NCBI GenBank assembly: GCA_963667785.2
Contig: CAXXMU010000001.1
Coordinates: forward strand, 352,001 to 416,000
From: Alphaproteobacteria bacterium
GTDB lineage: Bacteria > Pseudomonadota > Alphaproteobacteria > UBA828
Direction: 5' to 3'
Length of the DNA stretch: 64,000 bases
Numbering within the stretch: the stretch's first letter is position 1; every line of letters begins with the position of its first letter. Made by a program: the position numbers and the translations under genes. Below are positions 869 to 64,000 of this stretch, in pieces. The notes below the pieces were generated by a model. That model made no database searches. It was not told where the DNA came from and saw nothing but the letters and a program-made list of their open reading frames with translations.

Positions 869-3274
869 ATGGCTTGGATGAGACTGACGGGATATGCGGA
901 CAAGTTCGGCGTCCATCCCGGCGATACGATCCGCTTCTACGTGAATTGCGACGGGCCGAAGAAGTACGACGCCCAGCTCGTGAAGATGATCAACGGCGAC
1001 ACCAACCCGCGCGGGCCGGGCCTGATCGAGCGCAGGCGGCGGGCGGCGCTCAACGGCACCTACAAGGGCCGCCGTCAGGTCATCCACAGCGGCTCCTACG
1101 GCTTCGTGGAGGACTGCTCCCAGCTCCGCGCGCAGAGCTTCACGCTCCAGTGCTGGGTGTGGCCGACGACGCCGAAGACTCATCCGAAGTACTGGAAGCA
1201 CGGCGCCCAGGGCCTGGTCACCAAGTGGCACAGGAACAAGGGCTACGGCCTCTTCATCAACGAGGACGGCTGCGCCGAGCTCCGCATCAACGGGAAGAAG
1301 GTCACGACCGGCGCGCCGCTCCGCGACCATGCCTGGCACTTCCTCGCCGCGACCTACGACGCCGAGTCCGGGCAGGCGATCCTCTATCACGAGCCGCAGG
1401 TGGTCTACGCCCTCGACCCGGTGATCAGACCCGCGAAGGAGAAGATCGCAGGGCCGGTCCGGCACGACGCGAGCCCCGCGGTCATCGCAGGCTATACCGG
1501 CGCGCACAGCGACGATCCCACCGCGCGGTCGTCGGTGCCGGCGGGCATCGTCATCAACGGCCACTACAACGGGAAGATCGACGGCCCGCGCATCTGCAAC
1601 CGCGCGCTCAGCCGCGAAGAGATCGAGACCATGAAGCTCGGCGCCCAGCGCGGCATGACCGAGCGGCGCAACTCCGGCCCCACCGGCGCGCTCTCCGAGA
1701 CGATCGTCGCCGCCTGGGACTTCTCCGACGGCATCGACACCATCGTCGGCAAGGACCACGGGCCCTATCTGCTGGATGCGCAGATCGTCAACTGCCCGAC
1801 CCGGGCCATGACCGGCCACAACCACTCGGGCGACAACTTCGACTGGAAGCACGCGCAGAGCGAGTACGGCGCCATCCACTTCCACGACGACGACGTGGAC
1901 GATGCGCGCTGGGAAGTCGACTTCGAGTGGACCGTCCCGGCGAACTACGAGAGCGATTCCTACTGCGTGAAGCTCACCACGGACGAAGGCGACGAGGACT
2001 ACATCCCCTTCTTCGTGGTGCCGCGCCCCGGCGAGGAGCAGGCCAAGATCGCGGTGATGATGCCGACGATCAGCTACATGGCCTACGCCAACGAGCATCT
2101 CGCCAACAACGCCGGCGGGGCGGAGCTGCTGGTCTACCGCGTGCCGATCATGCAGCACCAGAACATGTTCCTGGCCGAGCACCGCGAGTATGGCGGCTCG
2201 ATCTACGACACCCATACCGACGGCAGCGGCCTCTGCCTCTCGTCCCGGCTCAGGCCGATCCTCAGCATCCGGCCGCAGTACGACCACTTCCTGATGCAGG
2301 CGCCGTGGCAGTATCCCGCCGACCTGCACCTGATCTACTGGCTCAATCAGCTTGGCTACAAGTACGACGTCATCACCGACGAGGACGTGAACTATGACGG
2401 CCTCGCGCGGCTGGAGAACTACAACGTCGTGATCACGGGCTCGCATCCGGAGCACAACTCCGGCCCGCAGCTCGACGCGATCCACGACTACACCCAGCGC
2501 GGCGGCCGCTTCATGTACATGGGCGCGGACGGCTTCTACTGGATCCACTCCTACCATCCGGCCTACGACCATCTCGGCCGCGGCATCATCACCGAGATGC
2601 GCCGATGCGAATCCGGCATCAGGACCTGGCGTGCCGATCCCGGCGAGTACTACCACCAGTCGACCGGCGAGCTCGGCGGCATGTGGCGCTATCGTGGGCG
2701 CTACCTGCACTCGGTCGCCGGCACCGGCATGTCGTCGGAAGGCTTCGACATCTCCAGCTACTACTCGCGCACGCCGGAGAGCAACGATCCGCGCGTCTCG
2801 TGGGCCTACGAGGGCATCGGCTACGACGAGAAGATCGGCAACTTCGGCCTGGTCGGCGGCGGTGCCGCCGGCACCGAGCTCGACATCGTCGACACCCTGC
2901 TCGGCTCGCCGCCGCACACGCTGATCACCGCGACCTCGGCGGGCCGCCACACCGAGGGCTACCTGCTGGTGATGGAGGACTTCGGCTTCAACCAGCAGGG
3001 CCTCGACGGCACCCAGCACCCGCGCGTGCGCTCGGACATCGCCTATCACGAGACGCCCAACGGCGGCGCCTGCTTCGCCTTCAGCTCGATCGCCTTCTGC
3101 GGCTCGCTGCCGTGGAACAACGGCGATCCCGAGAAGAACAACATCTCGCGGCTGGTGAAGAACGTGCTCGACCGCTTCTCGCAGGACGGCCCGCTGCCGC
3201 CGCCGCCGCGCAGTGCCATCCAGCATCGCGGTCGCGCCGATTACGATCCGCCGCTCAACAAGAAGCGGAAATAG
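869..3274 (+). CDS. dmfA2: N,N-dimethylformamidase large subunit
   Basis: 801 aa; GDTNPRGPG, LamG-like N-terminal region, AIHFHDDD, YMAYANEH, SIYDTHTDG, GSHPEH, GLVGGGAAGTELD; AAGGAG RBS. Confidence 0.9.
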   Translation: MAWMRLTGYADKFGVHPGDTIRFYVNCDGPKKYDAQLVKMINGDTNPRGPGLIERRRRAALNGTYKGRRQVIHSGSYGFVEDCSQLRAQSFTLQCWVWPTTPKTHPKYWKHGAQGLVTKWHRNKGYGLFINEDGCAELRINGKKVTTGAPLRDHAWHFLAATYDAESGQAILYHEPQVVYALDPVIRPAKEKIAGPVRHDASPAVIAGYTGAHSDDPTARSSVPAGIVINGHYNGKIDGPRICNRALSREEIETMKLGAQRGMTERRNSGPTGALSETIVAAWDFSDGIDTIVGKDHGPYLLDAQIVNCPTRAMTGHNHSGDNFDWKHAQSEYGAIHFHDDDVDDARWEVDFEWTVPANYESDSYCVKLTTDEGDEDYIPFFVVPRPGEEQAKIAVMMPTISYMAYANEHLANNAGGAELLVYRVPIMQHQNMFLAEHREYGGSIYDTHTDGSGLCLSSRLRPILSIRPQYDHFLMQAPWQYPADLHLIYWLNQLGYKYDVITDEDVNYDGLARLENYNVVITGSHPEHNSGPQLDAIHDYTQRGGRFMYMGADGFYWIHSYHPAYDHLGRGIITEMRRCESGIRTWRADPGEYYHQSTGELGGMWRYRGRYLHSVAGTGMSSEGFDISSYYSRTPESNDPRVSWAYEGIGYDEKIGNFGLVGGGAAGTELDIVDTLLGSPPHTLITATSAGRHTEGYLLVMEDFGFNQQGLDGTQHPRVRSDIAYHETPNGGACFAFSSIAFCGSLPWNNGDPEKNNISRLVKNVLDRFSQDGPLPPPPRSAIQHRGRADYDPPLNKKRK

Positions 3275-7156: not shown

Positions 7157-8040
7157 TGGCGCCGTTCCACGATGTAGCGGGCGACGGCGCGGAGCGGCTC
7201 GGCCCTGTCATCGAAGCGGCCGAGCGCGGCGATGGCGTCGTCCGCCAGAGCGCCCGCCCGCCGGCGTGCCTCCTCGGCACCGAGCAGGCCGACGAAGGTC
7301 GCCTTGCCGGCGGCGGCATCCTTGCCCACGGCCTTGCCGAGATCCGCCTCCGAGCCCTCGTGATCGAGCAGGTCGTCGGCGATCTGGAACGCGAGGCCGA
7401 TGCGGGCGGCGTAGTCGCGAAGCGCCGCGCGGGCCGCACCGTCCTCGCGCGCGAGAATGGCGCCGGCCTCGCAGGAGAAGCCGAACAGCGCCCCGGTCTT
7501 GAGCTGCTGCAGGCGGACGATCTCGTCGAGGCCGAGCTCGCGGGTCTCCGCCGCCAGGTCGATCGCCTGGCCGCCGGCCATCCCGTCCGCGCCGGCGGCG
7601 CGTGCGAGCGCGCAGGCGAGGGCCGCGCGCACGCCAGCGTCCGGATGGCCCGAGGGCGCCGTGACCGCCTCGAAGGCGAGCGTCAGCAGCGAATCGCCGA
7701 CCAGGATCGCCGTCGCCTCGTCGAAGGCGATGTGGCAGGTGGGCTTGCCGCGCCTGAGGTCGTCGTCGTCCATTGCCGGCAGGTCGTCGTGGACGAGGGA
7801 GTAGGTGTGCACCATCTCGATGGCGGCGGCGGTGTTGACCGACCAGGCGCGCGGCACGTCGAAGAGGTCGGCGCCCGAGAGGACCAGGAAGGGGCGCAGC
7901 CGCTTGCCGCCGGCAAAGAGCGAATAGCGCATCGCCTCGTAGAGGCGCCCGTTCTCGCCGTTGGTCAGGGGAACCAGTGAATCGAGCGCCGTGTCCACGG
8001 CCTCCGCGGCCTCGCGGAGCGCTTCTTCCAGCGTCGTCAC
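7153..8040 (-). CDS. ispA: Geranyltranstransferase / farnesyl diphosphate synthase
   Basis: GGKRLRP, SLVHDDLPAMDDDDLRRGKPT, KTGALF, FQIADDLLD. Confidence 0.95.
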   Translation of the reverse strand: MTTLEEALREAAEAVDTALDSLVPLTNGENGRLYEAMRYSLFAGGKRLRPFLVLSGADLFDVPRAWSVNTAAAIEMVHTYSLVHDDLPAMDDDDLRRGKPTCHIAFDEATAILVGDSLLTLAFEAVTAPSGHPDAGVRAALACALARAAGADGMAGGQAIDLAAETRELGLDEIVRLQQLKTGALFGFSCEAGAILAREDGAARAALRDYAARIGLAFQIADDLLDHEGSEADLGKAVGKDAAAGKATFVGLLGAEEARRRAGALADDAIAALGRFDDRAEPLRAVARYIVERRH

Positions 8041-9155: not shown

Positions 9156-10583
9156 CTAGATCGCGGGCCGCCGGTCGCGCCAGGGCTGCGTCGCGCCCTC
9201 GAAGGCGGCGGCGGCGCGGAACACGGCGTGATCGTCGTAGGGTCGGCCCACGATCTGCATGCCGGTGGGCACGCCATAGGAGGAGAAGCCGGTCGGCACG
9301 CTCATAGCCGGACACTGGCTCATCAGGTTGAAGGGGTTGGTGCAGACCCAGCCGACATAGGCCGGCAGGCGGACGCCGTTGATCTCGAAATCGGGGTCCG
9401 CGTCGTCATGGTCGGCCTTGACCGCCGGCACCGCGAGGGTGGGGCAGATCAGGATGTCGTAGGACTTGAGGATCGGCTGCAACTGCTGCCACATCCAGCC
9501 GCGGAACACCTGGCACTGGTAGAGGCGCGCGGCGCTGTGCCCCAGCCCGCTCTCGAGCAGCCTGACGACGAACGGATCCATCTCGTAGCGCCAGCGGGGC
9601 AGCAGATGGCCGGCGATTCCGGCGAAGAGGCCTTCCCACCAGGTCATCCAGCAATCGAGGACACCGAAGTTCCAGCCGATGTCGACCTCCTCCACGGTGC
9701 ACCCGAGCGAGCGCAGCGTCTCGGCCGCGCGCCGCGTGTTCGCCTGCACCTCCGGGTCGATCTGCAGGTAGCCGAGGTCCATGGAGAAGGCGACCTTCCA
9801 GCCGCGAATGTCGTCGTAGGTGGTCGGCAGCCGCACCTTGTTGGGGAGGCTGCTGAGATCGTCCGGATGCGGCCCCGACATGACGTTCTGCATGAGCGCG
9901 GCGTCGGCGACGCTACGGACCATGGGGCCGTAGTGGAGGATCGTTTCCAGCGGATGGTCCCGGTCGAGCGGATTGCGGCCGAAGGGGGGCTTGTAGCCGA
10001 AGAGACCGCAGGCCGACGAGGGGATGCGGATCGAGCCGCCGCCGTCGGTGCCGTCGGCGAGCGTGGTCATGCCGCCGGCGACCGCCGCGCCTGCGCCGCC
10101 CGATGAGCCGCCGGACGTGTACTCCAGGTTCCACGGATTGGGCGTGATCCCCCAGAGCGGGCTGTGGGTGGCGCCGGAATAGGCGAACTCCGGCGACGTC
10201 GTGCGCATGTGCATGATGGCGCCGGCGCGCAGCAGCCGGTCCACCGTCGCAGCGGTGTAGTCGGGGCGGAAGTCCTCGAAGATTTTCGAGCCGAAGGTGG
10301 TGATCTCGCCCTTGACCGGGTGGAAGTCCTTGATCGCCACCGGCACGCCCTCGAGCGCGCGCAGCCGGCCGTCGGTCTTTCCGTACTTGGCCTCGGCCTT
10401 CTTCGCCTGCTCGCGCGCCCGGTCGAAGAAGTCGTAGGTGATGGCGTTGACCCTGGGATTGATCGCCTGCGCGCGCGCGATCTGCGCGTCCAGCAGCTCC
10501 ACCGGCGATAGCGTGCGCGCCTTGAAGCGTGCTAGCGCCTCGCTCGCCGTCAGGTAGCAAAGCTCGAGATCGGCCGATGCCAT
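9156..10583 (-). CDS. Amidase signature (GatA-like) family amidase
   Basis: GVPVAIKD, GGSSGG, GTDGGGSIRIPS (Lys-Ser-Ser triad motifs); GGAG RBS. Confidence 0.92.
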   Translation of the reverse strand: MASADLELCYLTASEALARFKARTLSPVELLDAQIARAQAINPRVNAITYDFFDRAREQAKKAEAKYGKTDGRLRALEGVPVAIKDFHPVKGEITTFGSKIFEDFRPDYTAATVDRLLRAGAIMHMRTTSPEFAYSGATHSPLWGITPNPWNLEYTSGGSSGGAGAAVAGGMTTLADGTDGGGSIRIPSSACGLFGYKPPFGRNPLDRDHPLETILHYGPMVRSVADAALMQNVMSGPHPDDLSSLPNKVRLPTTYDDIRGWKVAFSMDLGYLQIDPEVQANTRRAAETLRSLGCTVEEVDIGWNFGVLDCWMTWWEGLFAGIAGHLLPRWRYEMDPFVVRLLESGLGHSAARLYQCQVFRGWMWQQLQPILKSYDILICPTLAVPAVKADHDDADPDFEINGVRLPAYVGWVCTNPFNLMSQCPAMSVPTGFSSYGVPTGMQIVGRPYDDHAVFRAAAAFEGATQPWRDRRPAI

Positions 10584-53673: not shown

Positions 53674-56235
53674 CTAGAACCGCCGGCTGTAGCGCGCGAG
53701 GATCGAGACTTCCCGTTCGCCCGCCACGTGTCCCGCGTCGTGCGAGGCGACCGCGGCCATGTGCGCCCGGCCGCCCGCCCAGGGACGCGAGTACGCGACC
53801 TCGAGGTCGAGTTGGCGGCCGGAGGGCTCGAGCCTCAGATCCGCCCGCTCGATCTCGACCCCTCCGCCGGGGCTCCGCCCGGACACCCACCGCAGCGCCG
53901 CGCGCCCCGCCTCGACGCGCAGCGGCTGCGACAGCCGGAACGCCAGCCGGTCGCCGCTCCGCCCGATATCCCGGCCCACGGCGCCCACCGCGAAGGCGCC
54001 GCTCCAGAGTCCCGATACCCCCCGCACGATGCCCTGGCGCAGACTGTCCGTCCGGTGCGTGCCGGCATGCGCGCTCCCCAACAGCGTCCAGTCCCCGCCC
54101 AGACGACGGGACGCCGTGAGGCCCGCGAGGATCGTCCCCGTCCCGAGCTCGCCGAAGGCGCCCTCGGGCCGGCTCCCCACCGCCCCGTCCGCTTCCGACA
54201 TCCATCCCGCCTGCAGTGCGAGGCCCGAATCGGCGAGCCCGCCGAAGCGGTACTCGGTGAGGGCGCCCGCGATCCCGTCGCTGCGCGCATCGGGCTGGCC
54301 GCCGTCCGGCCCCGTGGCCGCGAACGCCGCGATCCGGAGCGAGCCGGTGCCCAGGGGCGACGCCAGGCCGAGGCTGGTCCCGTCGCGGGCGAAGCCGAGA
54401 TACGGATTGGCGAATGCGCCGGCGTCGGCGAACGTGCCCGGCGCGAGCTCTCCCGCTTCCGGGCCGAACCGCGAGGCCAGCCGGCTGCGGTATCCGAACT
54501 CAAGTTGGCGGCTGCCGAAGTCGTGCATGACCGACAGCGACGCGAGCGCGGCCAAGCCGTCACCGACATCGGCACCGTGCGCGGCCGGGACGACATCGAG
54601 GCGCACCTGCAAGTCGTGCCCGTCCACCTCCCACGGCGTCCCCCGGGGATCGCGCCCCAATGCTCTCAGGCGGTCTGCGAGCGAGGAGCCGGCGAACCCC
54701 GCCAGCCGAAGGTAGTCGTCGAGGCGGCGGAAGAACGGTGCATCGAGCTCGTCGAAGCTCGCCACGTGCGCCGAGGCGAGTCCGCGTGCGAGCGAGTCCC
54801 CGAAGGCCGGGCCCAGGTAGAGCGCGCTCTGCGCCTCCGGCGACGATGCGCCGGAGAGCGAGACGCCGGTCAGCATCCGCTGTCCCCCGACCGGCCGGGT
54901 GGCCGTATCGAGGTCCAGGAAGCCTTGGCCGTACACGTCGGCGTCCGCGTACACGCCCGTCCTGTCGGCAGTGGCGAGAATGCGCTCCACGATCTCGTCA
55001 TTGCCGAGCTGATTGCGAAAATGCTGGGCGAGAAGCCCGATCCCGCCCGTCACGAACGGTGCCGCCGACGAGGTGCCGGCCTCTTCGACCGTAATGAAAC
55101 ACTGCGATGCGCCGGCCTCGCAGTGGAACGCCGGTGCCGGACCCGTGATGTCCACGCCGGGTGCCGCCAGACAGAACGCCTTGGCGATCCCGCAGCGGTT
55201 GGAGAAGTCGGCGATCGTGCCATCCGGGTTCGTCGCCACGACCGCCAGCGAATGGCCCCGTAGCTCCGGGAGCCGCACCGAAAGCCCGGGCAGGGGCTCG
55301 ACCGAGCTCGCCGACACCGGCGACCCGTCCGGTCCGATCTCGCCGTGGGCGTTGCCGGCCGCCCAGACGTAGATCGTGCGCTCGGCGGCCGCGGCATCCG
55401 CCTGCGCCATCGCCGCGATGGCGTTGGGAAAGCGTTCCCGCAGCTCCTGTGCGTCGAAGTCCTCGATGTTGCCGGGAACGCCGAAGCTGCAGTTGACCGC
55501 CGTCACCCGGCCGTTCAGCCGGGAGAAGGCAATCCCGGTGTCCCGCTCCAGTTCCCTCTCGAGCTGCGCTTCGACATCGAGGACCCGCGCCTGGAGCTCC
55601 TCGATCTGCTCGGGCGTGGGGTTCTCCGGGTACTCCGCAACGATCTCGTCGATGACCTCCTCCAGGTCGCGCGATCCCACGCCCACCGATATGACCCTGG
55701 CGTCGAACGCGACCCCGTGAACGGGCGGCCCGCCTGCCGCGTCCGTCTCCGGAGTCTCCTGCCGTGCGGCGGCCATGATGCCCGCGACCAGCGTTCCATG
55801 TCCCAGCCCGCTGAAGCACGTGCCGTCGGGGCCGACCTCGTCGCAGGTGCCGAAGTCGGGGTCGTAGTCCCCGACGTAGCTCGCTTCGAGCTTGCCTTCG
55901 AACTTGGGGTGATCGGGATCGACCCCGGTGTCGACGATCCCGAGCGTCACGCCCTCGCCGGTCGCGCCGCGGGCGTAGGCGTAGTGCGCCTTGATCCGGG
56001 CGAGCCCATCCTGGTTGCGGAACTCCTCGTGGCTGGCGTACTCCCCGCGCCGTTGCTCTTCCGTCTCGGGATCGGGGGTTCCGTCGACTAGGCGCACCGT
56101 CGTGCTGGTACCGCAACCCGCGAGCGCCAGGGCGAGAATCAGGACGACGGCGGGGGCTCCCGCCGCTCGGGCCGCCGCCCGGCGGGCTCGCGGTTTCGAA
56201 GCCGTGTGTCGGGTCGCCCACCCCACGCGTGTCAT
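53674..56235 (-). CDS. Lipoprotein S8 (subtilisin) serine peptidase with C-terminal beta-barrel-like domain
   Basis: Lipobox LALAGC; catalytic GIVDTG, GHGTLVAG, WAAGN, GTSSAAP; amphipathic strands ending ILARYSRRF. Confidence 0.88.
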   Translation of the reverse strand: MTRVGWATRHTASKPRARRAAARAAGAPAVVLILALALAGCGTSTTVRLVDGTPDPETEEQRRGEYASHEEFRNQDGLARIKAHYAYARGATGEGVTLGIVDTGVDPDHPKFEGKLEASYVGDYDPDFGTCDEVGPDGTCFSGLGHGTLVAGIMAAARQETPETDAAGGPPVHGVAFDARVISVGVGSRDLEEVIDEIVAEYPENPTPEQIEELQARVLDVEAQLERELERDTGIAFSRLNGRVTAVNCSFGVPGNIEDFDAQELRERFPNAIAAMAQADAAAAERTIYVWAAGNAHGEIGPDGSPVSASSVEPLPGLSVRLPELRGHSLAVVATNPDGTIADFSNRCGIAKAFCLAAPGVDITGPAPAFHCEAGASQCFITVEEAGTSSAAPFVTGGIGLLAQHFRNQLGNDEIVERILATADRTGVYADADVYGQGFLDLDTATRPVGGQRMLTGVSLSGASSPEAQSALYLGPAFGDSLARGLASAHVASFDELDAPFFRRLDDYLRLAGFAGSSLADRLRALGRDPRGTPWEVDGHDLQVRLDVVPAAHGADVGDGLAALASLSVMHDFGSRQLEFGYRSRLASRFGPEAGELAPGTFADAGAFANPYLGFARDGTSLGLASPLGTGSLRIAAFAATGPDGGQPDARSDGIAGALTEYRFGGLADSGLALQAGWMSEADGAVGSRPEGAFGELGTGTILAGLTASRRLGGDWTLLGSAHAGTHRTDSLRQGIVRGVSGLWSGAFAVGAVGRDIGRSGDRLAFRLSQPLRVEAGRAALRWVSGRSPGGGVEIERADLRLEPSGRQLDLEVAYSRPWAGGRAHMAAVASHDAGHVAGEREVSILARYSRRF

Positions 56236-56350
56236 CGGTTCCTTGCCCCTCGCCGTTTCGGAGTCAGTCCCGGACAATCCGTCGATGACCCACCCGCGCA
56301 GCGGTGTGCAGGAGCGTAGCCGCATACGGGGACAATAGGCGGAACAGTGT

Positions 56351-56397
56351 GAAAATTGTGTGCTATATCGACTAAAGTAAGTATCTTTTCCGTATAT
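56351..56397 (-). promoter_or_regulatory. Bipartite conserved motif, degenerate copy C upstream of the S8 peptidase
   Basis: Reverse complement ATATACGGAAAA...GCACACAATTTTC; box spacing 2 nt shorter than copies A and B. Confidence 0.4.
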
Positions 56398-56460
56398 TTC
56401 ATCGGCTCCGGGTAAGCGGTAAGAGCGCACCACCCTCGACGTCAAGTCGGACTTGAGGTG

Positions 56461-56497
56461 GGCGTAGGGTGTTGTTAAGCGTGGAAAACTGACCCCC
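56461..56497 (+). mobile_element. 37-bp inverted repeat, left copy (IS21-like terminus)
   Basis: ggcgtagggTGTTGTTAAGCGTGGAAAACTGACCCCC; 33/37 identical to the reverse complement of 59262-59298. Confidence 0.7.
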
Positions 56498-56529
56498 TAT
56501 TGGAGTGGGCCCCAGGGGCCCCCTCCAGT

Positions 56530-56665
56530 CTCGACGGTTGCGACGATCGCATCCTGTCGCTCTATGCGCGCGGCATGACGGTGCGCGAGATCCAGGGTCA
56601 CCTGCGGGAGCTCTACGGCGTCGCGGTCTCGCCTGACCTGATCAGCCGGGTGCCGAACGCGATTG
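56530..56665 (+). pseudogene. IS256-family transposase internal fragment
   Basis: DDRILSLYARGMTVREIQGHLRELYGVAVSPDLISRV, characteristic of IS256 (mutator) transposases; truncated at both ends. Confidence 0.85.
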
Positions 56666-56671
56666 TTACCT

Positions 56672-56735
56672 GCAACTCGCACGCACCGACGTGCGCGAAT
56701 GGATACGGCAGGCCTCGCCGGGTCGGCCCTCCTGC
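56672..56735 (+). repeat. Orphan fragment of the conserved leader
   Basis: caactcgcacgcaccgacgtg...cggcaggcctcgccgggtcgg matches 59576-59632 caacttgcacgcatcggcgtg...cggcaggcctcgccgagtcgg. Confidence 0.6.
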
Positions 56736-56739
56736 GCCG

Positions 56740-56876
56740 GCGGTGCGGCATCGCCACCAAGCACCTCGACAGCTATCTCAGGCGGTTCCATCTCATCGCT
56801 CTCGGCAATCCGCCCGCCGAGAGCGTGTCTCGAGGCGGCGATGACCAACCCAGGTCTACGTTTCGCAAACTGAGCC
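56740..56876 (+). pseudogene. IS1595-family transposase C-terminal remnant with probable terminal repeat
   Basis: GIATKHLDSYLRRFHL, then after a frameshift RACLEAAM...RFAN*; ends tttcgcaaactgagcc. Confidence 0.7.
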
Positions 56877-57239
56877 TAATTTTTGGCCAATTTCCCCAAA
56901 GTTGGGGACGCGAGAAAATCTGAAGTCTTCTAATACTTGTAATGACAGGGGCCCAGGCACTGCGCGGAACAATGTCTTGTCGTTTCCGCCGGGAGTTGAT
57001 GACAGCGAGTGTGCAAAGGAAGCCCATGAGGTGCGGCGTCGTCCCGGCCTTACGCGCCTACGTCGGAACCCGGCTGATGCGAAGAGCCGTCGAGGCGCCC
57101 GCACGGCGTGGCGCCGGACGCGATTCTTCCCGGCGACCCGCACGCGCTGTCGTGGGCGAACGGTTCCTGCAGGCCTTGCCGGGCCGGCTCTTCACCCATG
57201 CTGCCACCCCGGTCCCGGCTTCCGGAAAGGACGTGTGAA
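56861..57239 (+). repeat. Conserved 379-nt non-coding leader, copy 1
   Basis: Direct repeat of 59303-59681; includes identical ccaatttccccaaagttggggacgcgagaaaatctgaagtcttctaatacttgt; ends in GAAAGGA RBS. Confidence 0.85.
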
Positions 57240-57878
57240 ATGAAGACGCGACGATCGATTCTCGGCCTGTTGGCATTCGCAGCGATCATGGTCGTGGCGG
57301 GCGCAGCCCACGCTGACTGCTGGGGCGACAATAGAGTGACTTTTCATCATTCCGAGTGTCTGCACGGCTGGTGGGACAATAATGACTGGCCCAGAAAAAG
57401 TACTTTCGGAGCTCAAGTTCAAAACGATTGCCACCTATGGGGCACGGTGGTTGCTAAAGTTGACCTGGCGAGTTGCTCGGACAAGACGTGGCACCTCAAC
57501 AACACCAGTAAGAGAAGAGGCAGTGAAGCTTGTCGAGTCAACGGCATCCATTGCTGCAAAGATGTCGGAGACTTGTGCAACAAGAGCGATCTCGTGACCA
57601 TAGATGGGTGCACGAGCCAGTGGAACAGCAGTCCCGCAAGCGATACGTGCTACCTTTCAGGCGGTGAAACTACTGTGTTCGGCACGATAATGGGAACTGG
57701 TGTGCAATCCGTCACCGCGTCGAGCGCCAACTACACGTGCAGTTTCTGGGCCAAATGCCAGCAAATAGGACCCGACTGGACCCAGCAGGAAAACGCGACT
57801 TCGATCAAGGACGTGCACTGGCTCGATGCTGACGATGTGGTCAATTGCAATGGGGTGTTGAAGGAAGATTCGTGTTGA
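57240..57878 (+). CDS. Secreted cysteine-rich protein, paralog 1 (212 aa, 14 Cys)
   Basis: Sec signal MKTRRSILGLLAFAAIMVVAGAAHA; RBS; two paralogs downstream; codon usage less GC-rich than host. Confidence 0.88.
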   Translation: MKTRRSILGLLAFAAIMVVAGAAHADCWGDNRVTFHHSECLHGWWDNNDWPRKSTFGAQVQNDCHLWGTVVAKVDLASCSDKTWHLNNTSKRRGSEACRVNGIHCCKDVGDLCNKSDLVTIDGCTSQWNSSPASDTCYLSGGETTVFGTIMGTGVQSVTASSANYTCSFWAKCQQIGPDWTQQENATSIKDVHWLDADDVVNCNGVLKEDSC

Positions 57879-57941
57879 AGCAAGGGTGAAGACCACGTGC
57901 CTGACGGAAGTTCGTTCCTGGCAGGCGGGGTGGGGAGGGGA

Positions 57942-58084
57942 GCCCGCACGACGTGGCGCCGGACGCGATTCTTCCCGGCGACCCGCACGCGCCGTCGTGG
58001 GCGAACGATCCCTGCAGGCCTTGCCGAGCCGGCGCTTGACCTATGCCGCCACCCCGGTCCCAGCTTCCGGAAAGGACGCGTGAC
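57942..58084 (+). repeat. Conserved leader, partial copy 2 (3' 143 nt)
   Basis: Near-identical to 57097-57239 at a constant 845-nt offset. Confidence 0.85.
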
Positions 58085-58729
58085 ATGAAGATGCGACGAT
58101 CGATTCTCAGCCTGTTGGCATTCGCAGCGATCATGGTCGTTGCGGGCGCAGCCTACGCCTCCTGCACGGGCAGCAATAGAGTGAGTTTTCATCAGGCCGA
58201 GTGTCTGCATGGCTGGTGGGACAACAACCCATGGCCCGCGAAAAGCACCTTCGCAGTTCGAGTTAAAAACGATTGCCATCTATGGGGCACGGTGGTTGCC
58301 AAAATTGACCTGGCGAGTTGCTCGGACAAGACGTGGCACCTCAACGACACCAATAGGAGAAGGGGCAGTGAACGTTGTACAGTCAACGGCATCCATTGCT
58401 GCAAAGATGTTGGAGACTTGTGCAACAAGAGCGATCTCGTGACCATAGCGGGGTGCACGAGCCAATGGAACAGCAGCCCCGCAAGCGATACATGTGATCT
58501 CTCAGATGGGTCGACGTCGTCCGTCACTGCGGACACGGACGACCACACGTGCGATTTCTGGGCGAATTGCCAGTACACGGCGGACGACGGGACCACCCAG
58601 GAAAAAGCGACTTCGATCGGAGACGTGCACTGGCTCGATTCTGACAACCTGGTCAATTGCAATGGGGAGTTGAAGAAAAGTTACAATGATTGTACGTCAA
58701 CGGATGTAGTTCCGAATTGGCGACCATGA
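58085..58729 (+). CDS. Secreted cysteine-rich protein, paralog 2 (214 aa, 14 Cys)
   Basis: Signal MKMRRSILSLLAFAAIMVVAGAAYA; ECLHGWWDNN..W, TWHL, CCKDVGDLCNK, VNCNG.LK. Confidence 0.88.
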   Translation: MKMRRSILSLLAFAAIMVVAGAAYASCTGSNRVSFHQAECLHGWWDNNPWPAKSTFAVRVKNDCHLWGTVVAKIDLASCSDKTWHLNDTNRRRGSERCTVNGIHCCKDVGDLCNKSDLVTIAGCTSQWNSSPASDTCDLSDGSTSSVTADTDDHTCDFWANCQYTADDGTTQEKATSIGDVHWLDSDNLVNCNGELKKSYNDCTSTDVVPNWRP

Positions 58730-59261
58730 GAACCGCTTGCAAAACTCCCGGTCGCGATTGCCCATGAAGGTATCAATGCGAGAATTTGCCTAAGCTGCAA
58801 GCAAAACAGGGCGGAACTCTCTTCCGTCTCTCCAATGTCGAGAGCTGATCTGGCGACGGCGAGCCGATTCGACGGTGAGGGCCGTGTGCCAGGCGGATGA
58901 TGATGGCAACACCTTCATCGGGAAAGGAGCGACGCGCCATGGCAACCGAAAGTAGGATTCGCCGGAGGGGGGCCTGCGGGATTTCGCGGGATGGCGAGGG
59001 ATTCCGGCGGGACAGGCGGCCTTCATGTCCCACGCCGCCGCCGGCCTCCCCTCCCGCGCGCCGCTCCTTTCCGCTTGCCTGCGCCCTCGCCCATCATGCC
59101 GCCACTCTCGCACGACCGCCCCACGCTCTGCATCGCACCATGGTGCGGGGTATCCGGTCCTGTAAGCGCGCGCCAACCGACAAGAGGTCGGCCAAAGAGA
59201 GGGTCGGAAAGCAGGTCTGAAGCGCCCCCTGAATCAACCGCTCGATGTAGTCGCGGTCCTT

Positions 59262-59298
59262 GGGGGTCAATTTTCCATGCTTAACAACACACCACGCC
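59262..59298 (-). mobile_element. 37-bp inverted repeat, right copy (IS21-like terminus)
   Basis: Reverse complement ggcgtggtgTGTTGTTAAGCATGGAAAATTGACCCCC. Confidence 0.7.
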
Positions 59299-59302
59299 TG
59301 AA

Positions 59303-59681
59303 TTTCGCAAAATGAGCCTAATTTTTTGACCAATTTCCCCAAAGTTGGGGACGCGAGAAAATCTGAAGTCTTCTAATACTTGTGCTGACAGGGGTCGAGG
59401 CACCGCGCGGAACGACGTCTTGTCGTTTCCGCTAGGAGCCGTTGACAGCGAGTGTGCAAAGGGAGCCCACGAGGTGCAGCGTCATCTCAGACTTACGCGC
59501 CTTTGTCGGAACCCGGTTGGCGCGACGAGCCGTCGGTGCGCGCACGACCTGAGTGCCGGATGCGACTCTTCCCTTCAACTTGCACGCATCGGCGTGGGCG
59601 AACGAACGCGGCAGGCCTCGCCGAGTCGGTCCGCCGGACACGTCGCTACCCTGTTCCCAGCGTCCAGAAAGGAAATGTGAA
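59303..59681 (+). repeat. Conserved 379-nt non-coding leader, copy 3
   Basis: Direct repeat of 56861-57239, same length to the ATG. Confidence 0.85.
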
Positions 59682-60290
59682 ATGAAAACGCGATACCCAA
59701 TTCTCGGCTTGCTGGCATTCGTATTGATCGTGGCCATTGCGGGCGCAGCCTACGCCTCGTGCACAGGCAGCAACAGGATCACTCGCAGCAACGCCGAGTG
59801 TCTTTCAGGCTGGTGGAACAACAAGAGTTGGCCAAGTAACTCGACCTTTGGCGCGCAGAATCTGTGCCCGGACTGGGGAAAGGTCGTCGCGAAAGTGGAC
59901 ATCAAAAACGCCGGCGACAGGACGTGGCATCTCGCCGACGGCGGCAAGAGGCGCGGCAGCACCTCAAGCACGGTCCGTGACATATACTGCTGCAAGGATC
60001 TCGGCGACAAGATGTGCAACAAGGCTGACAGGGTCTCGGTGGATAGTTGCAAGACGCAGTTCGAGAAAAGCGCTGCCGACGACGACTGCGATCTCGACGG
60101 CGATCCGACCCTCGATGGTACTTCGTCTTGCGTGTTCGATATGACGTGCAACTATACAGGAAATGGTGGGGTAAACTACGAGTACGAGGGCAAACTCGGT
60201 TTATCCTGGCACCGCGCCGATGAGATCGTATTCTGCGGTGAACACATCGGAATACAACCGAGGATGTGGTTGACCACCGGCAGTTGCTGA
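59682..60290 (+). CDS. Secreted cysteine-rich protein, paralog 3 (202 aa, 12 Cys)
   Basis: Signal MKTRYPILGLLAFVLIVAIAGAAYA; ECLSGWWNN, WGKVVAKVD, TWHL, YCCKDLGDKMCNK. Confidence 0.88.
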   Translation: MKTRYPILGLLAFVLIVAIAGAAYASCTGSNRITRSNAECLSGWWNNKSWPSNSTFGAQNLCPDWGKVVAKVDIKNAGDRTWHLADGGKRRGSTSSTVRDIYCCKDLGDKMCNKADRVSVDSCKTQFEKSAADDDCDLDGDPTLDGTSSCVFDMTCNYTGNGGVNYEYEGKLGLSWHRADEIVFCGEHIGIQPRMWLTTGSC

Positions 60291-60405
60291 GCGCCTGACG
60301 ATGGCCGATAGCGGCGCGGCGGCATTCGCTGTTCGGCGTCGGCCGTCGCAGGGCGTTTCGTCCAGGCGAATCGCTGTCCGGACCGGATCGGTCCGGTTGT
60401 GAACG

Positions 60406-61872
60406 ATGAGCGAAGACGAACGGCGCCTAGGGTCCTGGCAGGGTGCCATCCTCCCGATGCGGCCCTGCATGCCCGCGTTCGTGCTGCTGCTCCTCGTGCC
60501 GCTGTTGGTGGCCTCCTGGTTGCCGGCGTCTGGACAGGCGCAGGAGGACGGCGGAGGGGCGGCACTCGAGCTGACGCTGGACGACGCGATCCGGCTGGCG
60601 CTGCATAACAACCGGGACCTGCTGGATGCGCGCCTCTCCCGCACCAACCAGGAGTTCTCCCTGGATGTGGCCGAGGACCGATACCGGCCGACGGCCGCCT
60701 TCAGCCCGGTCGTGCGGGCGGCGCGGGAGCGGGACACGACGGCGGAGCTTGCCGCCGAGACGGGGCTTCGGATCGAGACCGGCGGGCAGTTCTCGTTGCG
60801 CTTCTCGGAGCCCGTTGCGGGCCCGGACGACGCCGACGGGAGAGTCTCGCTCAGCTTCTCGCAGCCGCTGCTGCGGGGCTTCGGGATCGACATCGATACC
60901 GCCCCGCTGCGCATCGCCCGCCTCGGCGACAGGATCAGCGTCCTGGCGTTCCGCGAGACCATCGCCGGCGTCGTGGTCTCCACCATCAATGCGTGGCGCA
61001 ACCTGGTGCGGGCCAGGCGGCAGCTGGAGATCGGCGAGGCCTCGCTGGTGCGCGCCCGCCAGCAGCTCGAGACCAACCGCACGCTGATCGAGGCAGGCCA
61101 GATGGCGGCGCGGGAGATTCTGCAGAGCGAGGCGGACGTCGCGGACCGTGAGCTTGGCCTGGTGCAGACGCGGAACGGCGTGACGACGGCCAACTTCGGA
61201 CTGATCGACATCCTCGATATCGACAGCGCGACGGTGGTCCGCCCGATGGAGTTGCCCGCCGCGCCGCGGCCAACGCTCTCGCTGGCCGACGCGATCGAGA
61301 CGGCGCTCCGACAGTCGCCCCGCTATGCGCGCGCGCTGCTGAACAGGGAGATCGCGGAGATCGACCTGGAGTTGGCCGAGGACAACCAGCTCTGGGATAT
61401 GTCGCTGGATGCCGACGTGTCTCGGGGCGTGGGCGGGGGTGCCGGGGAGACGCACTATTCCGCGGGCCTGCGTCTGACCATCCCGCTGTGGGACCGCGAG
61501 CCCGAGCTCGGTCTCAGAGCGGCGCAGGCCGGGGTCACGCAGGCCGAGCGCGGGCTGGTGGAGCTGCGCCAGTCGATGGACATCCAGGTGCGCCAGGCAG
61601 TGCACGACGTTGAGGTGGGACTCAGGCAGATCGAGCTCGCCCGGCAGGCGCTCAGACTATCGGAGGAGAAGCTCGCGATCGAGCAGAGCAAGCTGCAACA
61701 GGGCCTGTCCTCCATCTTCCAGCTCGCCCGCTTCGAGGATGACCTGGTGCGGGCGCAGAACGCCGAGGTGGACGCACTCGTCGACTACGAGAACGCGCTG
61801 ACGGCGCTGGACCAGACGCTGGGCACGACGCTCGAGACCTGGGGCATCGCGGTGGAGCAGGTGGGGCGATGA
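60406..61872 (+). CDS. TolC family outer membrane efflux protein
   Basis: Signal peptide, LTLDDAIRLALHNN, FSQPLLRGFG, LSLADAIETALRQSP, two OEP-like repeats; start may lie slightly downstream. Confidence 0.88.
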   Translation: MSEDERRLGSWQGAILPMRPCMPAFVLLLLVPLLVASWLPASGQAQEDGGGAALELTLDDAIRLALHNNRDLLDARLSRTNQEFSLDVAEDRYRPTAAFSPVVRAARERDTTAELAAETGLRIETGGQFSLRFSEPVAGPDDADGRVSLSFSQPLLRGFGIDIDTAPLRIARLGDRISVLAFRETIAGVVVSTINAWRNLVRARRQLEIGEASLVRARQQLETNRTLIEAGQMAAREILQSEADVADRELGLVQTRNGVTTANFGLIDILDIDSATVVRPMELPAAPRPTLSLADAIETALRQSPRYARALLNREIAEIDLELAEDNQLWDMSLDADVSRGVGGGAGETHYSAGLRLTIPLWDREPELGLRAAQAGVTQAERGLVELRQSMDIQVRQAVHDVEVGLRQIELARQALRLSEEKLAIEQSKLQQGLSSIFQLARFEDDLVRAQNAEVDALVDYENALTALDQTLGTTLETWGIAVEQVGR

Positions 61873-63653
61873 CGGAGCCGCACACGGACGTCCACGGGCG
61901 CGTGCTGGAGAACCTGCTCGACGGGGTGATGGTGGTCGAGCTCGGCGGCACCATCGCGGTGTTCAATGCGGCGGCCGGCCGTATCCTGGGCATGGCGTCG
62001 GACGAGGTGCTTGGGAAGAGCTTCGCCGAGCTGTTCGTCCCGCACGAGGAGCTGGAAGAGTTCAGCGAGCTCGTGCTCGGCACCGTCGCGGGCGAAGGCG
62101 CGAGCGGCCGGCAGGTGGTGACGCTCGATCCCGGCGGCCAGCCGCGCTCGCTCTCGGTTGCGACCTCCTACATCAGGCAGACCGTCGACGGCGCGTCGGT
62201 GCCGATGGCGCTGGTCGCCGTCTTCAGCGACATCACCGAGCTCAGGGAGTTGCGCGAGACAGAGCTGCGCATGGCGAAGGAGGTGGAGGCGCAGCACACC
62301 GAGCTGCAGTCCGCCTACCGCCAGATCGAGGAGCGCAACGAGACCCTGGCCCGGATGCTGAAGAAGGTCCAGGTGGCGCGGATCATGGCGACGGTGTTGG
62401 TGATCGGCGTGTTCCTGGGGGCCGGCACCTACGTGTGGCAGCCGTTCGACCACGTCGATCTGCCGTTCATCGGCGACTCGTCGGGCTCGTCGATGATCGC
62501 CGAGGCCGGTGCCGATACCGAGAGCGGCCTCTACACCCTGACGGTGGAGCCCGAGCCGGTGCGCGAGACGATCTCGCTGTCTGGACGGCTCGAGCCGTGG
62601 CGGTCGGTCGCGGTGACGAGCCCGCTGGCGAGCCAGATCGCCGTCGTGCACTTCCGCCAGGGCCAGGAGGTGAAGGAGGGCGACCTTCTGATCGAGCTCA
62701 ACACGTCGGAGGCGGTCCGCCTGCACCGCGAGGCGCAGGTGAAGCACATCGAGGCGCTGAGAGCGTTCGAGACCGTCAGGGACTGGGAGAGCGGGTCCGA
62801 GATGGCCGAGGCCCGGCGCTCCTATGCGCGGGCGCGCATGGCGCTGGAGAGCCAGGAGAATCAGTTGAAGCGAGCCGCGTTTCTGCTGGAGCAGGGCCTG
62901 ATTCCCGCATCGGAGCACGAGGATGCGGAGCGCCAGTATCGGGGCCAGCTGCTGGACTTCGAGGCGGCCCAGGAGGATCTCGCCGCGGCGCGTGCCAGGG
63001 GCGGCGGGGAAGCGCTGGACAAGGCGGCGCTGGAGCTGAGGACCGCCGAGGAGGAGCTGCAGGAGCTGGCGCAGAGCCTGGGTCAGAGCCGCATCCATGC
63101 GCCGCTCTCGGGCGTCGTGCTGGCCCATTCCGGCACCTCGCGCCTGCAGGAAGGCAGGAACATCGGCAGGGGCGAGGTGCTGGCGACCATCGGCGACTTC
63201 AGCCGCATGGCGGCGACGGCCAAGGTCGACGAGGTGGACGTGGTGCGGATCGCGGTCGGCCAGCCAGTCTCGGTGACCGGCAATGCCTTCGGCGGCCTGC
63301 GCTTGCGGGGGACCGTGACCCACGTCGCTTCCCAGCCCGACCCCCGGTCGCGGGGCACGCCCCTGTTCGACGTGGCGGTGACGCTGGATCCGCTCGACGA
63401 GGAGCAAAAGGAGCGGATCCGCGCCGGCATGTCGAGCCGCCTCAGGATCGTCGTCTACAGCAAGGAGGCGGCGCTGATGGTGCCGCTCGAGGCGGTGGAG
63501 CAGCGGGGGCGCTCCTACTTGGTGAGCGTGGTCGACCCGTCGACCCGGGAGGTGGGCGAGCGGGAGGTGGTCATCGGACCGACCACCCAGGATTCGGTCG
63601 AGATCACGGCCGGGCTGCAGGCTGGCGACGAGATCGTGATTCGAGAACGATAA
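61869..63653 (+). CDS. PAS-domain-fused periplasmic adaptor (MacA/RND-type membrane fusion protein)
   Basis: ENLLDGVMVV..G.I..FNAAAGRILG...VFSDITE (PAS), coiled coil, one TM, then GQEVKEGDLL, IHAPLSGVV, VDEVDV, RAGMSS, GLQAGDEI; ATGA overlap with tolC. Confidence 0.88.
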   Translation: MTEPHTDVHGRVLENLLDGVMVVELGGTIAVFNAAAGRILGMASDEVLGKSFAELFVPHEELEEFSELVLGTVAGEGASGRQVVTLDPGGQPRSLSVATSYIRQTVDGASVPMALVAVFSDITELRELRETELRMAKEVEAQHTELQSAYRQIEERNETLARMLKKVQVARIMATVLVIGVFLGAGTYVWQPFDHVDLPFIGDSSGSSMIAEAGADTESGLYTLTVEPEPVRETISLSGRLEPWRSVAVTSPLASQIAVVHFRQGQEVKEGDLLIELNTSEAVRLHREAQVKHIEALRAFETVRDWESGSEMAEARRSYARARMALESQENQLKRAAFLLEQGLIPASEHEDAERQYRGQLLDFEAAQEDLAAARARGGGEALDKAALELRTAEEELQELAQSLGQSRIHAPLSGVVLAHSGTSRLQEGRNIGRGEVLATIGDFSRMAATAKVDEVDVVRIAVGQPVSVTGNAFGGLRLRGTVTHVASQPDPRSRGTPLFDVAVTLDPLDEEQKERIRAGMSSRLRIVVYSKEAALMVPLEAVEQRGRSYLVSVVDPSTREVGEREVVIGPTTQDSVEITAGLQAGDEIVIRER

Positions 63654-63667
63654 CCATAAGCTTCGCA

Positions 63668-64000
<333 letters not shown>

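Follow-up and report, generated by a model that had tools for sequence, protein, structure and literature searches.

A PAS domain joined through a length-quantised helix to a MacA-like periplasmic adaptor: a rare, conserved family with a plausible role in controlling MacB-type export

How might a tripartite exporter be controlled from inside the cell? To our knowledge, what has been learned about how tripartite efflux and secretion pumps are controlled concerns transcription almost exclusively. The question is raised by one gene in a 64,000-nucleotide stretch of an alphaproteobacterial genome (Alphaproteobacteria bacterium, UBA828; assembly GCA_963667785.2, contig CAXXMU010000001.1, positions 352,001-416,000), called the window in the following, whose coordinates are used unless another locus is named. 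This gene encodes a MacA-type periplasmic adaptor with a PAS domain in front of its membrane anchor. We find the PAS-adaptor to be real, conserved and rare, and the regulatory mechanism that we propose for it is plausible. The PAS domain with its DIT motif and following helix is of a standard kind and the adaptor is MacA-like; what is new is the combination. The gene and its parts are arranged as follows.

61869..63653, plus strand: gene of the PAS-tagged MacA-type periplasmic adaptor including its stop codon, 594 residues in a single stop-free open reading frame (ORF).
61899..62231, plus strand: PAS domain, predicted cytoplasmic, residues 11-121 (Pfam PAS, PAS_9 and PAS_4; TIGR00229; topology in the AlphaFold2 (AF2) model; Foldseek).
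62229..62240, plus strand: D121-I-T-E124 motif, with which the PAS domain ends and the helix starts (family alignment).
62235..62369, plus strand: putative signalling helix, residues 123-167 (AF2 helix, conservation, heptad pattern).
62370..62438, plus strand: single transmembrane (TM) helix, about residues 168-190 (hydropathy; continuous with the signalling helix).
62439..62531, plus strand: disordered, variable periplasmic tether, residues 191-221 (low predicted local distance difference test score (pLDDT), low conservation, insertions and deletions).
62532..63650, plus strand: MacA-like adaptor body with membrane-proximal, beta-barrel, lipoyl and alpha-hairpin domains, residues 222-594 (HlyD_D23, HlyD_3, TIGR01730, Foldseek).

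Both halves of the protein were recognised above the cutoffs of the respective profiles. In Pfam, PF00989 (PAS) covered residues 11-104 (2.1e-10, 41.0 bits against a cutoff of 22.6), PF13426 scored 32.2 against 27 and PF08448 31.7 against 23.1, and the PAS_9 and PAS_4 matches reached about residue 127; the NCBIfam PAS S-box model TIGR00229 gave 1e-12 (48.3 bits, cutoff 22.9). The periplasmic part matched HlyD_D23 over residues 245-496 (7e-14, 52 bits, cutoff 30) and HlyD_3 over residues 409-520 (2.4e-16, 60.8 bits, cutoff 22.2), and the RND_mfp model TIGR01730 (3e-39, 134.9 bits, cutoff 94.9) places the protein in the adaptor family. An AF2 model built with 42 relatives had a mean pLDDT of 82.9. 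It showed the canonical PAS topology with strands 19-24, 28-32, 81-86, 93-106 and 109-121, a single unbroken helix from the DIT motif through the TM segment (residues 123-183), disorder at residues 184-221 (pLDDT below 50 over 182-219) and, over residues 222-591, the four-domain adaptor fold at a pLDDT of about 85-95, with hairpin helices 280-341 and 347-404. In this model, as in one of the isolated PAS-helix part, DSSP assigned a five-stranded antiparallel sheet with helices, the DIT motif ending the last strand and the long helix following.

Outside the PAS core, strongly hydrophobic 19-residue windows occurred only at residues 163-191. Lysines 165 and 166 and arginine 171 flank this segment on its N-terminal side and acidic residues on its C-terminal side; inspection of the 594 residues revealed neither an N-terminal signal peptide nor a cysteine. 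From the charge flanks and the missing signal peptide it follows, by topology rules, that the PAS domain would lie in the cytoplasm and the adaptor body in the periplasm. Since the protein has no cysteine, it has no lipobox either. An initial annotation, made from the letters of the window alone, had described a PAS domain ending in DITE, a coiled coil, one TM helix and a complete MacA-like adaptor in one frame; ORF, Pfam and NCBIfam matches, hydropathy and the AF2 model bear out this description. It had also compared the PAS-DIT-coiled-coil part with the linkers of sensor kinases, which agrees with a PAS fold that ends in DIT and runs on into a long helix, and had noted a coupling to tolC, seen in the sequence as an overlap of the adaptor ATG with the TGA of the preceding OEP-domain gene (ATGA).

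Is this architecture confined to one assembly? A word-indexed search of 5.8 billion proteins with the whole sequence returned 281 homologues at E<=1e-3, the best 120 of which extend down to 46% identity. A Pfam PAS accession was present in 116 of these 120, nearly all being 581-625 residues long with a typical length of about 590; those lacking it were P0073 (422 residues), P0075 (478 residues), P0077 and P0097. Residues 1-215 alone, searched against 1.84 billion representatives of 50% clusters, gave 62 matches at E<=1e-30 and 1632 at E<=1e-10. The top 150 included 65 proteins of 544-634 residues with a single match at the N-terminus, the remainder being multi-PAS proteins and short fragments. 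HlyD-type adaptor domains were found in all 65, Pfam PAS at 1e-5 in 62, and the other three matched the PAS-helix profile of the family at 1e-44 or better. Judged from these sequences, the PAS-adaptor architecture is common to at least 65 clusters at 50% identity, which settles the concern raised with the initial annotation that the fusion might be unique to this assembly: it belongs to a large conserved family. One homologue, P0146 (1064 residues), carries PAS, adaptor and a MacB_PCD permease domain in one frame, the result of either an additional fusion or a gene call with read-through.

These data also bear on the trivial explanation that misassembly, a frameshift or a wrong start created the fusion and that the true start of the adaptor is at the TM helix. 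Adaptors without PAS, about 435 residues long, do exist, and the short P0073 and P0075 named above would fit such an explanation. Against it, the frame is open throughout, M1 is invariant in all 42 rows of the family alignment (A1), all of which share the architecture, and the same architecture recurs in independent genomes and metagenomes. A 2359-nucleotide contig of sequencing run X2, possibly not independent of the assembly, spans 61441-63799 without a gap and with 41 differing letters. Moreover, conservation, measured in 117 full-length relatives by how frequent the commonest residue is on average, is as high in the PAS domain (0.70) as in the adaptor body (0.69). The census refutes an artefact, to which we give practically no credence. 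An antisense ORF (61785-63668, minus strand, 627 residues) covers the whole adaptor gene, and there are further ORFs in other frames; such antisense ORFs are typical of DNA with 70% GC, and no family match stands behind them.

Although conserved and widespread, the family is rare. When the whole protein was compared with 400 other genomes of the phylum, residues 8-592 were matched only in two genomes (G317, G136); a third match (G210) began at residue 133, and the others covered the adaptor part only. With a PAS-helix profile (A3), 3 of 400 other genomes of the same class were carriers (G623, G136, G688), their frames of 613-636 residues running on into an adaptor and adjoining a gene for an outer-membrane factor (OMF). 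In the window's own taxonomic family none of the three sampled genomes carried a PAS-adaptor. Two named relatives are Alphaproteobacteria metagenome-assembled genomes, and ESM Atlas clusters list Pseudomonadota and Thermodesulfobacteriota under automatic names such as 'PAS domain-containing protein', 'efflux RND transporter periplasmic adaptor subunit' and 'PAS/PAC sensor protein'. In the full-text literature, with subscription journals and supplements outside the search, we found no description of a PAS-adaptor fusion. Papers with both 'PAS domain' and 'HlyD' treat the two separately, judged by their titles, and PMC2887384 and PMC13274458 were irrelevant in the portions consulted. The whole word 'PAS' is absent from the first 300,000 of the 747,818 characters of a 2021 Chem Rev review (PMC8277102), and 'PAS' is also absent from the June 2026 adaptor review PMC13328181.

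If the PAS domain acts on the adaptor, the connecting helix would be the route. By the same measure of conservation, the helix (residues 124-166) reached 0.82, the highest value of any segment, and the TM segment 0.73, with the tether lowest at 0.50. Between residues 108 and 202 the 117 relatives had no residues inserted with respect to the query, and the helix was free of insertions and deletions. At the DIT junction, D121 was kept in all 118 aligned family members, I122 in 113 and T123 in 109. From L125 up to the TM segment, hydrophobic positions follow each other at spacings of 3-4 in a heptad pattern, interspersed with the conserved polar residues E132, Q142 and N157; conserved glycines (G180, G184, G186) mark the TM segment itself. 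We then compared linker lengths in 94 PAS-bearing adaptors (the query, 65 representatives, 17 members of alignment A1 and 11 locus proteins), of which 91 could be aligned. The distance from DIT to the TM segment was unchanged in 74 and shorter by exactly seven residues in 10; the remaining seven differed by -4 (three), -1 (two), -9 (one) and +2 (one). A length that varies almost only by 0 or -7 is what would be expected of a helix whose phase between two domains has to be preserved. Such quantisation is, at the level of sequence comparison, the mark of a phase-sensitive signalling helix, and together with the conservation of the helix it supports a putative mechanical link between PAS domain and TM segment. 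A fixed distance between DIT and output domain is described for the BvgS kinase family in parts of PMC4810494.

A helix that is better conserved than the PAS core would also be expected of a packing interface. PAS domain and helix might hence do no more than oligomerise, neighbouring protomers forming dimers for instance, and so hold or position the adaptor ring around permease and ATPase, or recruit the separate ATPase, constitutively and irrespective of any signal. Textbook knowledge holds that many PAS domains are mainly dimerisation modules; moreover, no cofactor signature was found in this one, and PAS-less relatives share the operon layout. However, a scaffold needs neither an aspartate 121 without exception nor polar E132, Q142 and N157 at core-like helix positions, and it leaves unexplained a length quantisation that is typical of signal-transmitting linkers. 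It also does not account for the company the module keeps, as its nearest relatives outside adaptors are sensor-output proteins. We consider a purely structural role unlikely.

This company became apparent in two ways. The isolated PAS-helix model (pLDDT 86.2) had as its nearest folds in Foldseek WalK, short LOV proteins with J-alpha helices, FixL, the LOV-kinase YF1, DosP and NifL. Furthermore, in sampled genomes of the same class the PAS-helix profile matched a PAS-GGDEF protein (G728) and a PAS-class III cyclase (G726). As the same type of PAS-helix module drives GGDEF and cyclase outputs, the adaptor with its TM helix occupies the usual position of the output domain. WalK, FixL, YF1, PpSB1-LOV and BvgS share with the PAS-adaptor a PAS domain ending in DIT, a directly following long helix and a fixed or heptad-quantised linker. 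In contrast to these sensor kinases and short LOV proteins, the helix here leads to a TM segment and a periplasmic adaptor instead of a DHp/kinase, GGDEF or cyclase domain, and flavin-adduct cysteine and a recognised haem histidine are both missing.

What would such a module act upon? The adaptor, of which the own genome holds one copy, stands in an operon with the genes listed here; L004 denotes the locus in the window's own genome that continues beyond the window.

60406..61872, plus strand: TolC-family OMF gene, 488 residues (Pfam OEP 1.1e-35, two stretches).
63668..64000, plus strand: start of the gene of a MacB/LolD-type ATP-binding cassette (ABC) ATPase, 230 residues as a whole, which runs beyond the window (L004 5669-6361).
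L004 6368-7579, own genome, outside the window: MacB_PCD+FtsX permease, after the ATPase gene.

The tolC-like gene carries the two OEP repeats of the TolC family (PF02321, 123.6 bits) and stayed under the cutoff of TIGR01844 (8e-24, 84.4 bits, cutoff 225.15). Pfam assigned the ATPase to ABC_tran (3.1e-33) and the permease to MacB_PCD (3.2e-34) and FtsX (4.5e-24). For both, the best NCBIfam model was MacB NF007826, under its cutoff because the genes are split. One operon thus holds the partners of a MacA-type adaptor, i.e., a MacB_PCD+FtsX permease, an ABC ATPase and an OMF, and the four genes together form a tripartite exporter of TolC-like duct, adaptor, separate ATPase and MacB-type permease. 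OMF, PAS-adaptor, ATPase and permease genes follow in the same order in the loci L005, L006, L015-L017, L022 and L044. Variants of this core were seen in L042, which has only the start of the ATPase gene, in L021, where the OMF gene lies elsewhere on the contig, and in L030 and L031, where ATPase and permease genes are divergent from OMF and adaptor genes. A scan of 56400-62000 for promoters and terminators gave chance numbers (one promoter-like hit versus 1.0 expected and five terminator-like hits versus 3.9).

The initial annotation had suggested that a cytoplasmic ligand or redox signal passing through the adaptor could gate export, a reading that the present comparison supports in part. 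We propose that the PAS domain would take two states depending on a cytoplasmic cue, which could be a small ligand, the redox or energy state, or a partner such as a neighbouring STAS protein. The phase-locked helix would pass this state on as rotation, piston movement or tilt of the adaptor TM helix, which would pack against the MacB-type permease/ATPase complex, and this contact would turn ATPase stimulation by the adaptor, or assembly of the pump, on and off. Control of export would in that case come from inside the cell and act after translation. MacA enhances the ATPase activity of MacB according to sections of the 2026 adaptor review (PMC13328181), and PMC2613632, in part, makes the same point. 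PAS gating of export is a plausible hypothesis; for the specific inside-out switch through phase-locked helix and TM segment, we see the scales as about level. A complex prediction for two PAS-helix chains (residues 1-170) and the ABC ATPase, run without controls, gave scores of 0.31, 0.01 and 0.20 relative to a mark of 0.32 and speaks neither for binding nor against it.

Several observations weigh against this mechanism. Firstly, no cofactor or ligand can be assigned to the PAS domain from sequence or fold. The nearest structures are generic PAS domains, which classify it by its model as one of the cytoplasmic signalling type and point to no particular ligand. Sequence matches over the N-terminal half were weak (PYP 2.4e-4, FixL 5.7e-4); an adduct of the LOV or PYP type is impossible, as the adaptor has no cysteine, and helix 60-73, which we take to be the place where FixL binds haem, contains no histidine, nor was a haem histidine recognised. 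Secondly, no evidence of expression emerged: no RNA run is listed among the 20 sequencing runs that contain the stretch, and those compared with it were all contigs. Thirdly, some relatives do without the PAS domain. In a quick IQ-TREE maximum-likelihood tree of the adaptor domains (103 rows, 94 with and 9 without PAS, SH-aLRT support, midpoint root), the PAS-less L024, L025 and L027 fell outside the PAS-bearing clade, and PAS-less L019 (98 support with P0151 and P0157), L014, L009-L011 and L013 were nested inside it. The well-supported part of the tree requires the PAS state to have changed three times or more. The L019 adaptor has 435 residues, 45% identity over residues 171-591, a cytoplasmic tail of 15 residues and the same order of OMF, adaptor, ATPase and permease genes. 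Hence the PAS module appears dispensable for pump function as such. Since the PAS-helix module is homologous throughout, one gain and several losses are the simplest reading of a tree in which PAS-less adaptors are thinly sampled and the root is a midpoint root only. Finally, the TolC-binding RLS motif, given as RxxxLxxxxxxS in parts of PMC3391258, does not occur with this spacing at the tip of the hairpin; its sole match lies at residue 434, outside the hairpin. The tip reads [R/K]335-x3-L339-x3-G343-L344-x3-S348, and position 346 is proline in 48, alanine in 44 and serine in 26 of 118 sequences.

The absent RLS spacing also contributes to how the adaptor is to be classified. Its body had its best PDB sequence matches in MacA (4dk0, 3fpp, 5nik) and its best Foldseek match likewise in a MacA chain (9qgy_G, 1.6e-25), with 5nik_D also found and AcrA, MexA, EmrA and ZneB following. 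Like MacA of the MacAB-TolC pump, a type VII ABC system of tripartite efflux, the protein combines a four-domain body with an anchor that is an N-terminal TM helix and no lipid, and it is associated with MacB-type ATPase and permease and a TolC-family duct. However, the MacA equivalog model NF008606 (2.6e-16 over residues 222-593) gave 59.7 bits against a cutoff of 342. As both this cutoff and the RLS spacing are missed, the adaptor is MacA-like in fold and partners and not a MacA orthologue. Further differences are the separate genes for ATPase and permease and, above all, the cytoplasmic part: about 167 residues of PAS domain and helix here, compared with only the membrane anchor in Escherichia coli MacA. 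MacA has no cytoplasmic domain according to the consulted sections of the 2026 review (PMC13328181), which also state that a small cytoplasmic domain of HlyD senses substrate.

HlyD of haemolysin type I secretion is thus a TM-anchored adaptor with a functional cytoplasmic N-terminal part, and a precedent for signalling from cytoplasm to periplasm. In contrast to the PAS-adaptor, its cytoplasmic part is small and not a PAS domain, and its HlyB-type ABC partner takes substrate from the cytoplasm; the PAS-adaptor scored 36.7 bits with TIGR01843, the cutoff being 208.65. In inside-out receptors of the LapD type, the domain that senses lies in the cytoplasm and acts across TM helices on a domain in the periplasm. 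The PAS-adaptor as proposed would follow this logic, although LapD uses EAL/GGDEF and HAMP domains instead of PAS and helix, acts by sequestration of a protease and not through a pump adaptor, and shows no sequence relationship.

If PAS gating holds true, a signal from the cytoplasm would feed directly into pump activity. The PAS-adaptors are also a natural, genetically simple system for studying how adaptor TM helices talk to MacB-type transporters, in which the PAS domain, the PAS-less relatives and a helix of 45 residues open to extension by heptads could serve as handles.

Which cargo might be exported? Gene neighbourhoods were compared in the window's sub-clade, defined by adaptors at least 58% identical (own genome, L005, L006, L015, L016 and L017). 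The following genes surround the pump.

57240..57878, plus strand: Cys-rich Sec-secreted protein, copy 1, 212 residues.
58085..58729, plus strand: Cys-rich Sec-secreted protein, copy 2, 214 residues.
59682..60290, plus strand: Cys-rich Sec-secreted protein, copy 3, 202 residues, ending 115 nucleotides upstream of the tolC-like gene.
L004 7604-9193, plus strand: HTTM protein with VKGC lumenal domain (gamma-carboxylase-like), 529 residues, directly after the permease gene.
L004 about 9317-9628, L005 9383-9928, L006 8601-9110, minus strand: DCC1-like thiol-disulfide oxidoreductase (PF04134, CPFC motif).

The Cys-rich proteins form a family of about 200 residues with Sec signal peptide and 12 conserved cysteines, which comprises 30 database clusters and has no match in Pfam or NCBIfam. 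Homologues adjoin the pump in five of the six sub-clade loci (own genome, L005, L006, L015 and L016). The upstream and 5' regions of these genes are repetitive: between 57094 and 60290 there is a 300-nucleotide unit in three copies (66-89% identity), an 83-nucleotide unit in four and a 219-nucleotide unit in two, at a GC content of 0.57-0.62 versus about 0.70 in the pump genes. An HTTM gene follows the permease gene in the own genome, L005, L006 and L015; L016 retains a remnant, and the L017 contig ends earlier. The DCC1-like gene lies antisense to the operon direction between the HTTM gene and a DsbA-like gene. For this interval we had also considered a plus-strand ORF of about 200 residues after the HTTM gene and rejected it as the wrong frame, the minus frame being more conserved between L005 and L006 (61% versus 42% identity) and matching PF04134. 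L005 and L006 also have a DsbA/ScsC-like gene, as does L015, where it lies upstream.

Taken from gene neighbourhood only, the cargo in the sub-clade may be the 12-Cys Sec-exported proteins or a product made from them. It would mature in the periplasm with the help of the HTTM, DCC1-like and DsbA/ScsC-like proteins and then leave through the TolC-like duct. MacB-type pumps, in the parts of the literature consulted, take their cargo from the periplasm, and a Sec-exported, disulfide-bonded cargo therefore fits. Excerpts of PMC4887032 and PMC5673888 describe MacB-type pumps that handle secreted peptide or protein toxins. Bacillus YknWXYZ with SDP and the export of small disulfide peptides by MacAB are similar in that a MacB-type pump with adaptor handles such a toxin. 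YknX differs in having no PAS domain, and the mature Cys-rich proteins, at about 175 residues, are far larger than those peptides. With about 19 kDa and six probable disulfides, the mature protein may even be too large for the TolC duct, which speaks against the proposed cargo. So does the finding that neither HTTM nor Cys-rich genes were seen in distant PAS-adaptor loci with several kilobases of flank (L021, L022, L030, L031). Since those loci lack them, the Cys-rich and HTTM genes point to a cargo of the sub-clade and not to a general purpose of the PAS domain. SdpB of the SDP system is presumably HTTM-like; the HTTM protein of this locus had no NCBIfam match, so that membership in the SdpB family is not supported. 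The set of HTTM, DCC1-like, DsbA-like and 12-Cys genes is nevertheless a lead to the function of bacterial HTTM proteins.

STAS-domain genes are a further recurrent neighbour. They occur within a few kilobases of the pump in L005, L006, L016 and L031 (in the latter at 7363-7755, plus strand, genome G136), and the L006 protein exceeded the cutoff of the anti-sigma-antagonist model TIGR00377 (117.9 bits, cutoff 53.45). In G728, a STAS gene lies beside the PAS-GGDEF gene mentioned above (L046 565-897, minus strand, and 1474-2535, plus strand). This adjacency hints at a PAS-STAS partnership, which could also operate in the opposite direction: the periplasmic state of the adaptor, such as cargo load or TolC engagement, might pass to the PAS domain, which would bind or release a STAS-like partner and so adjust gene expression, in the manner of transporters that signal their flux to a kinase. 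The STAS genes next to the pump and next to PAS-GGDEF, and the anti-sigma-antagonist match, would all suit such a reporter. However, the own-genome operon is without a STAS gene, the best copies of both STAS and DsbA-like genes lying on other contigs, and the loci examined showed neither an anti-sigma kinase nor a phosphatase adjoining the pump. Known PAS-DIT-helix proteins, according to textbook knowledge, signal from the PAS domain into the helix and not the reverse. An outside-in reporter seems to us improbable, somewhat more so than the scaffold.

Returning to control from inside the cell, the most far-reaching form of the proposal would make this the first sensor-gated tripartite pump. 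Its PAS domain would read a redox, energy, metabolite or STAS state and switch the MacB-type exporter, and it would thereby time the release of disulfide-rich proteins matured by HTTM protein and oxidoreductases. We advance this extended version tentatively, as possible and somewhat short of probable.

The cluster is bordered by sequences of mobile elements. Upstream of the Cys-rich genes, 56500-56844 (plus strand) holds a fragment of a Mutator-family transposase (PF00872, 2.8e-8, profile positions 104-143 only), and in the own genome a HTH_Tnp_1 transposase gene (L004 9894-10373, plus strand) closes the cluster downstream. With transposase sequences flanking both sides, the cassette perhaps sits in DNA that is mobile or has been rearranged. 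Immediately before the cluster, 53674-56445 (minus strand) encodes a 923-residue subtilase (Peptidase_S8, 1.1e-34) with a long C-terminal extension.

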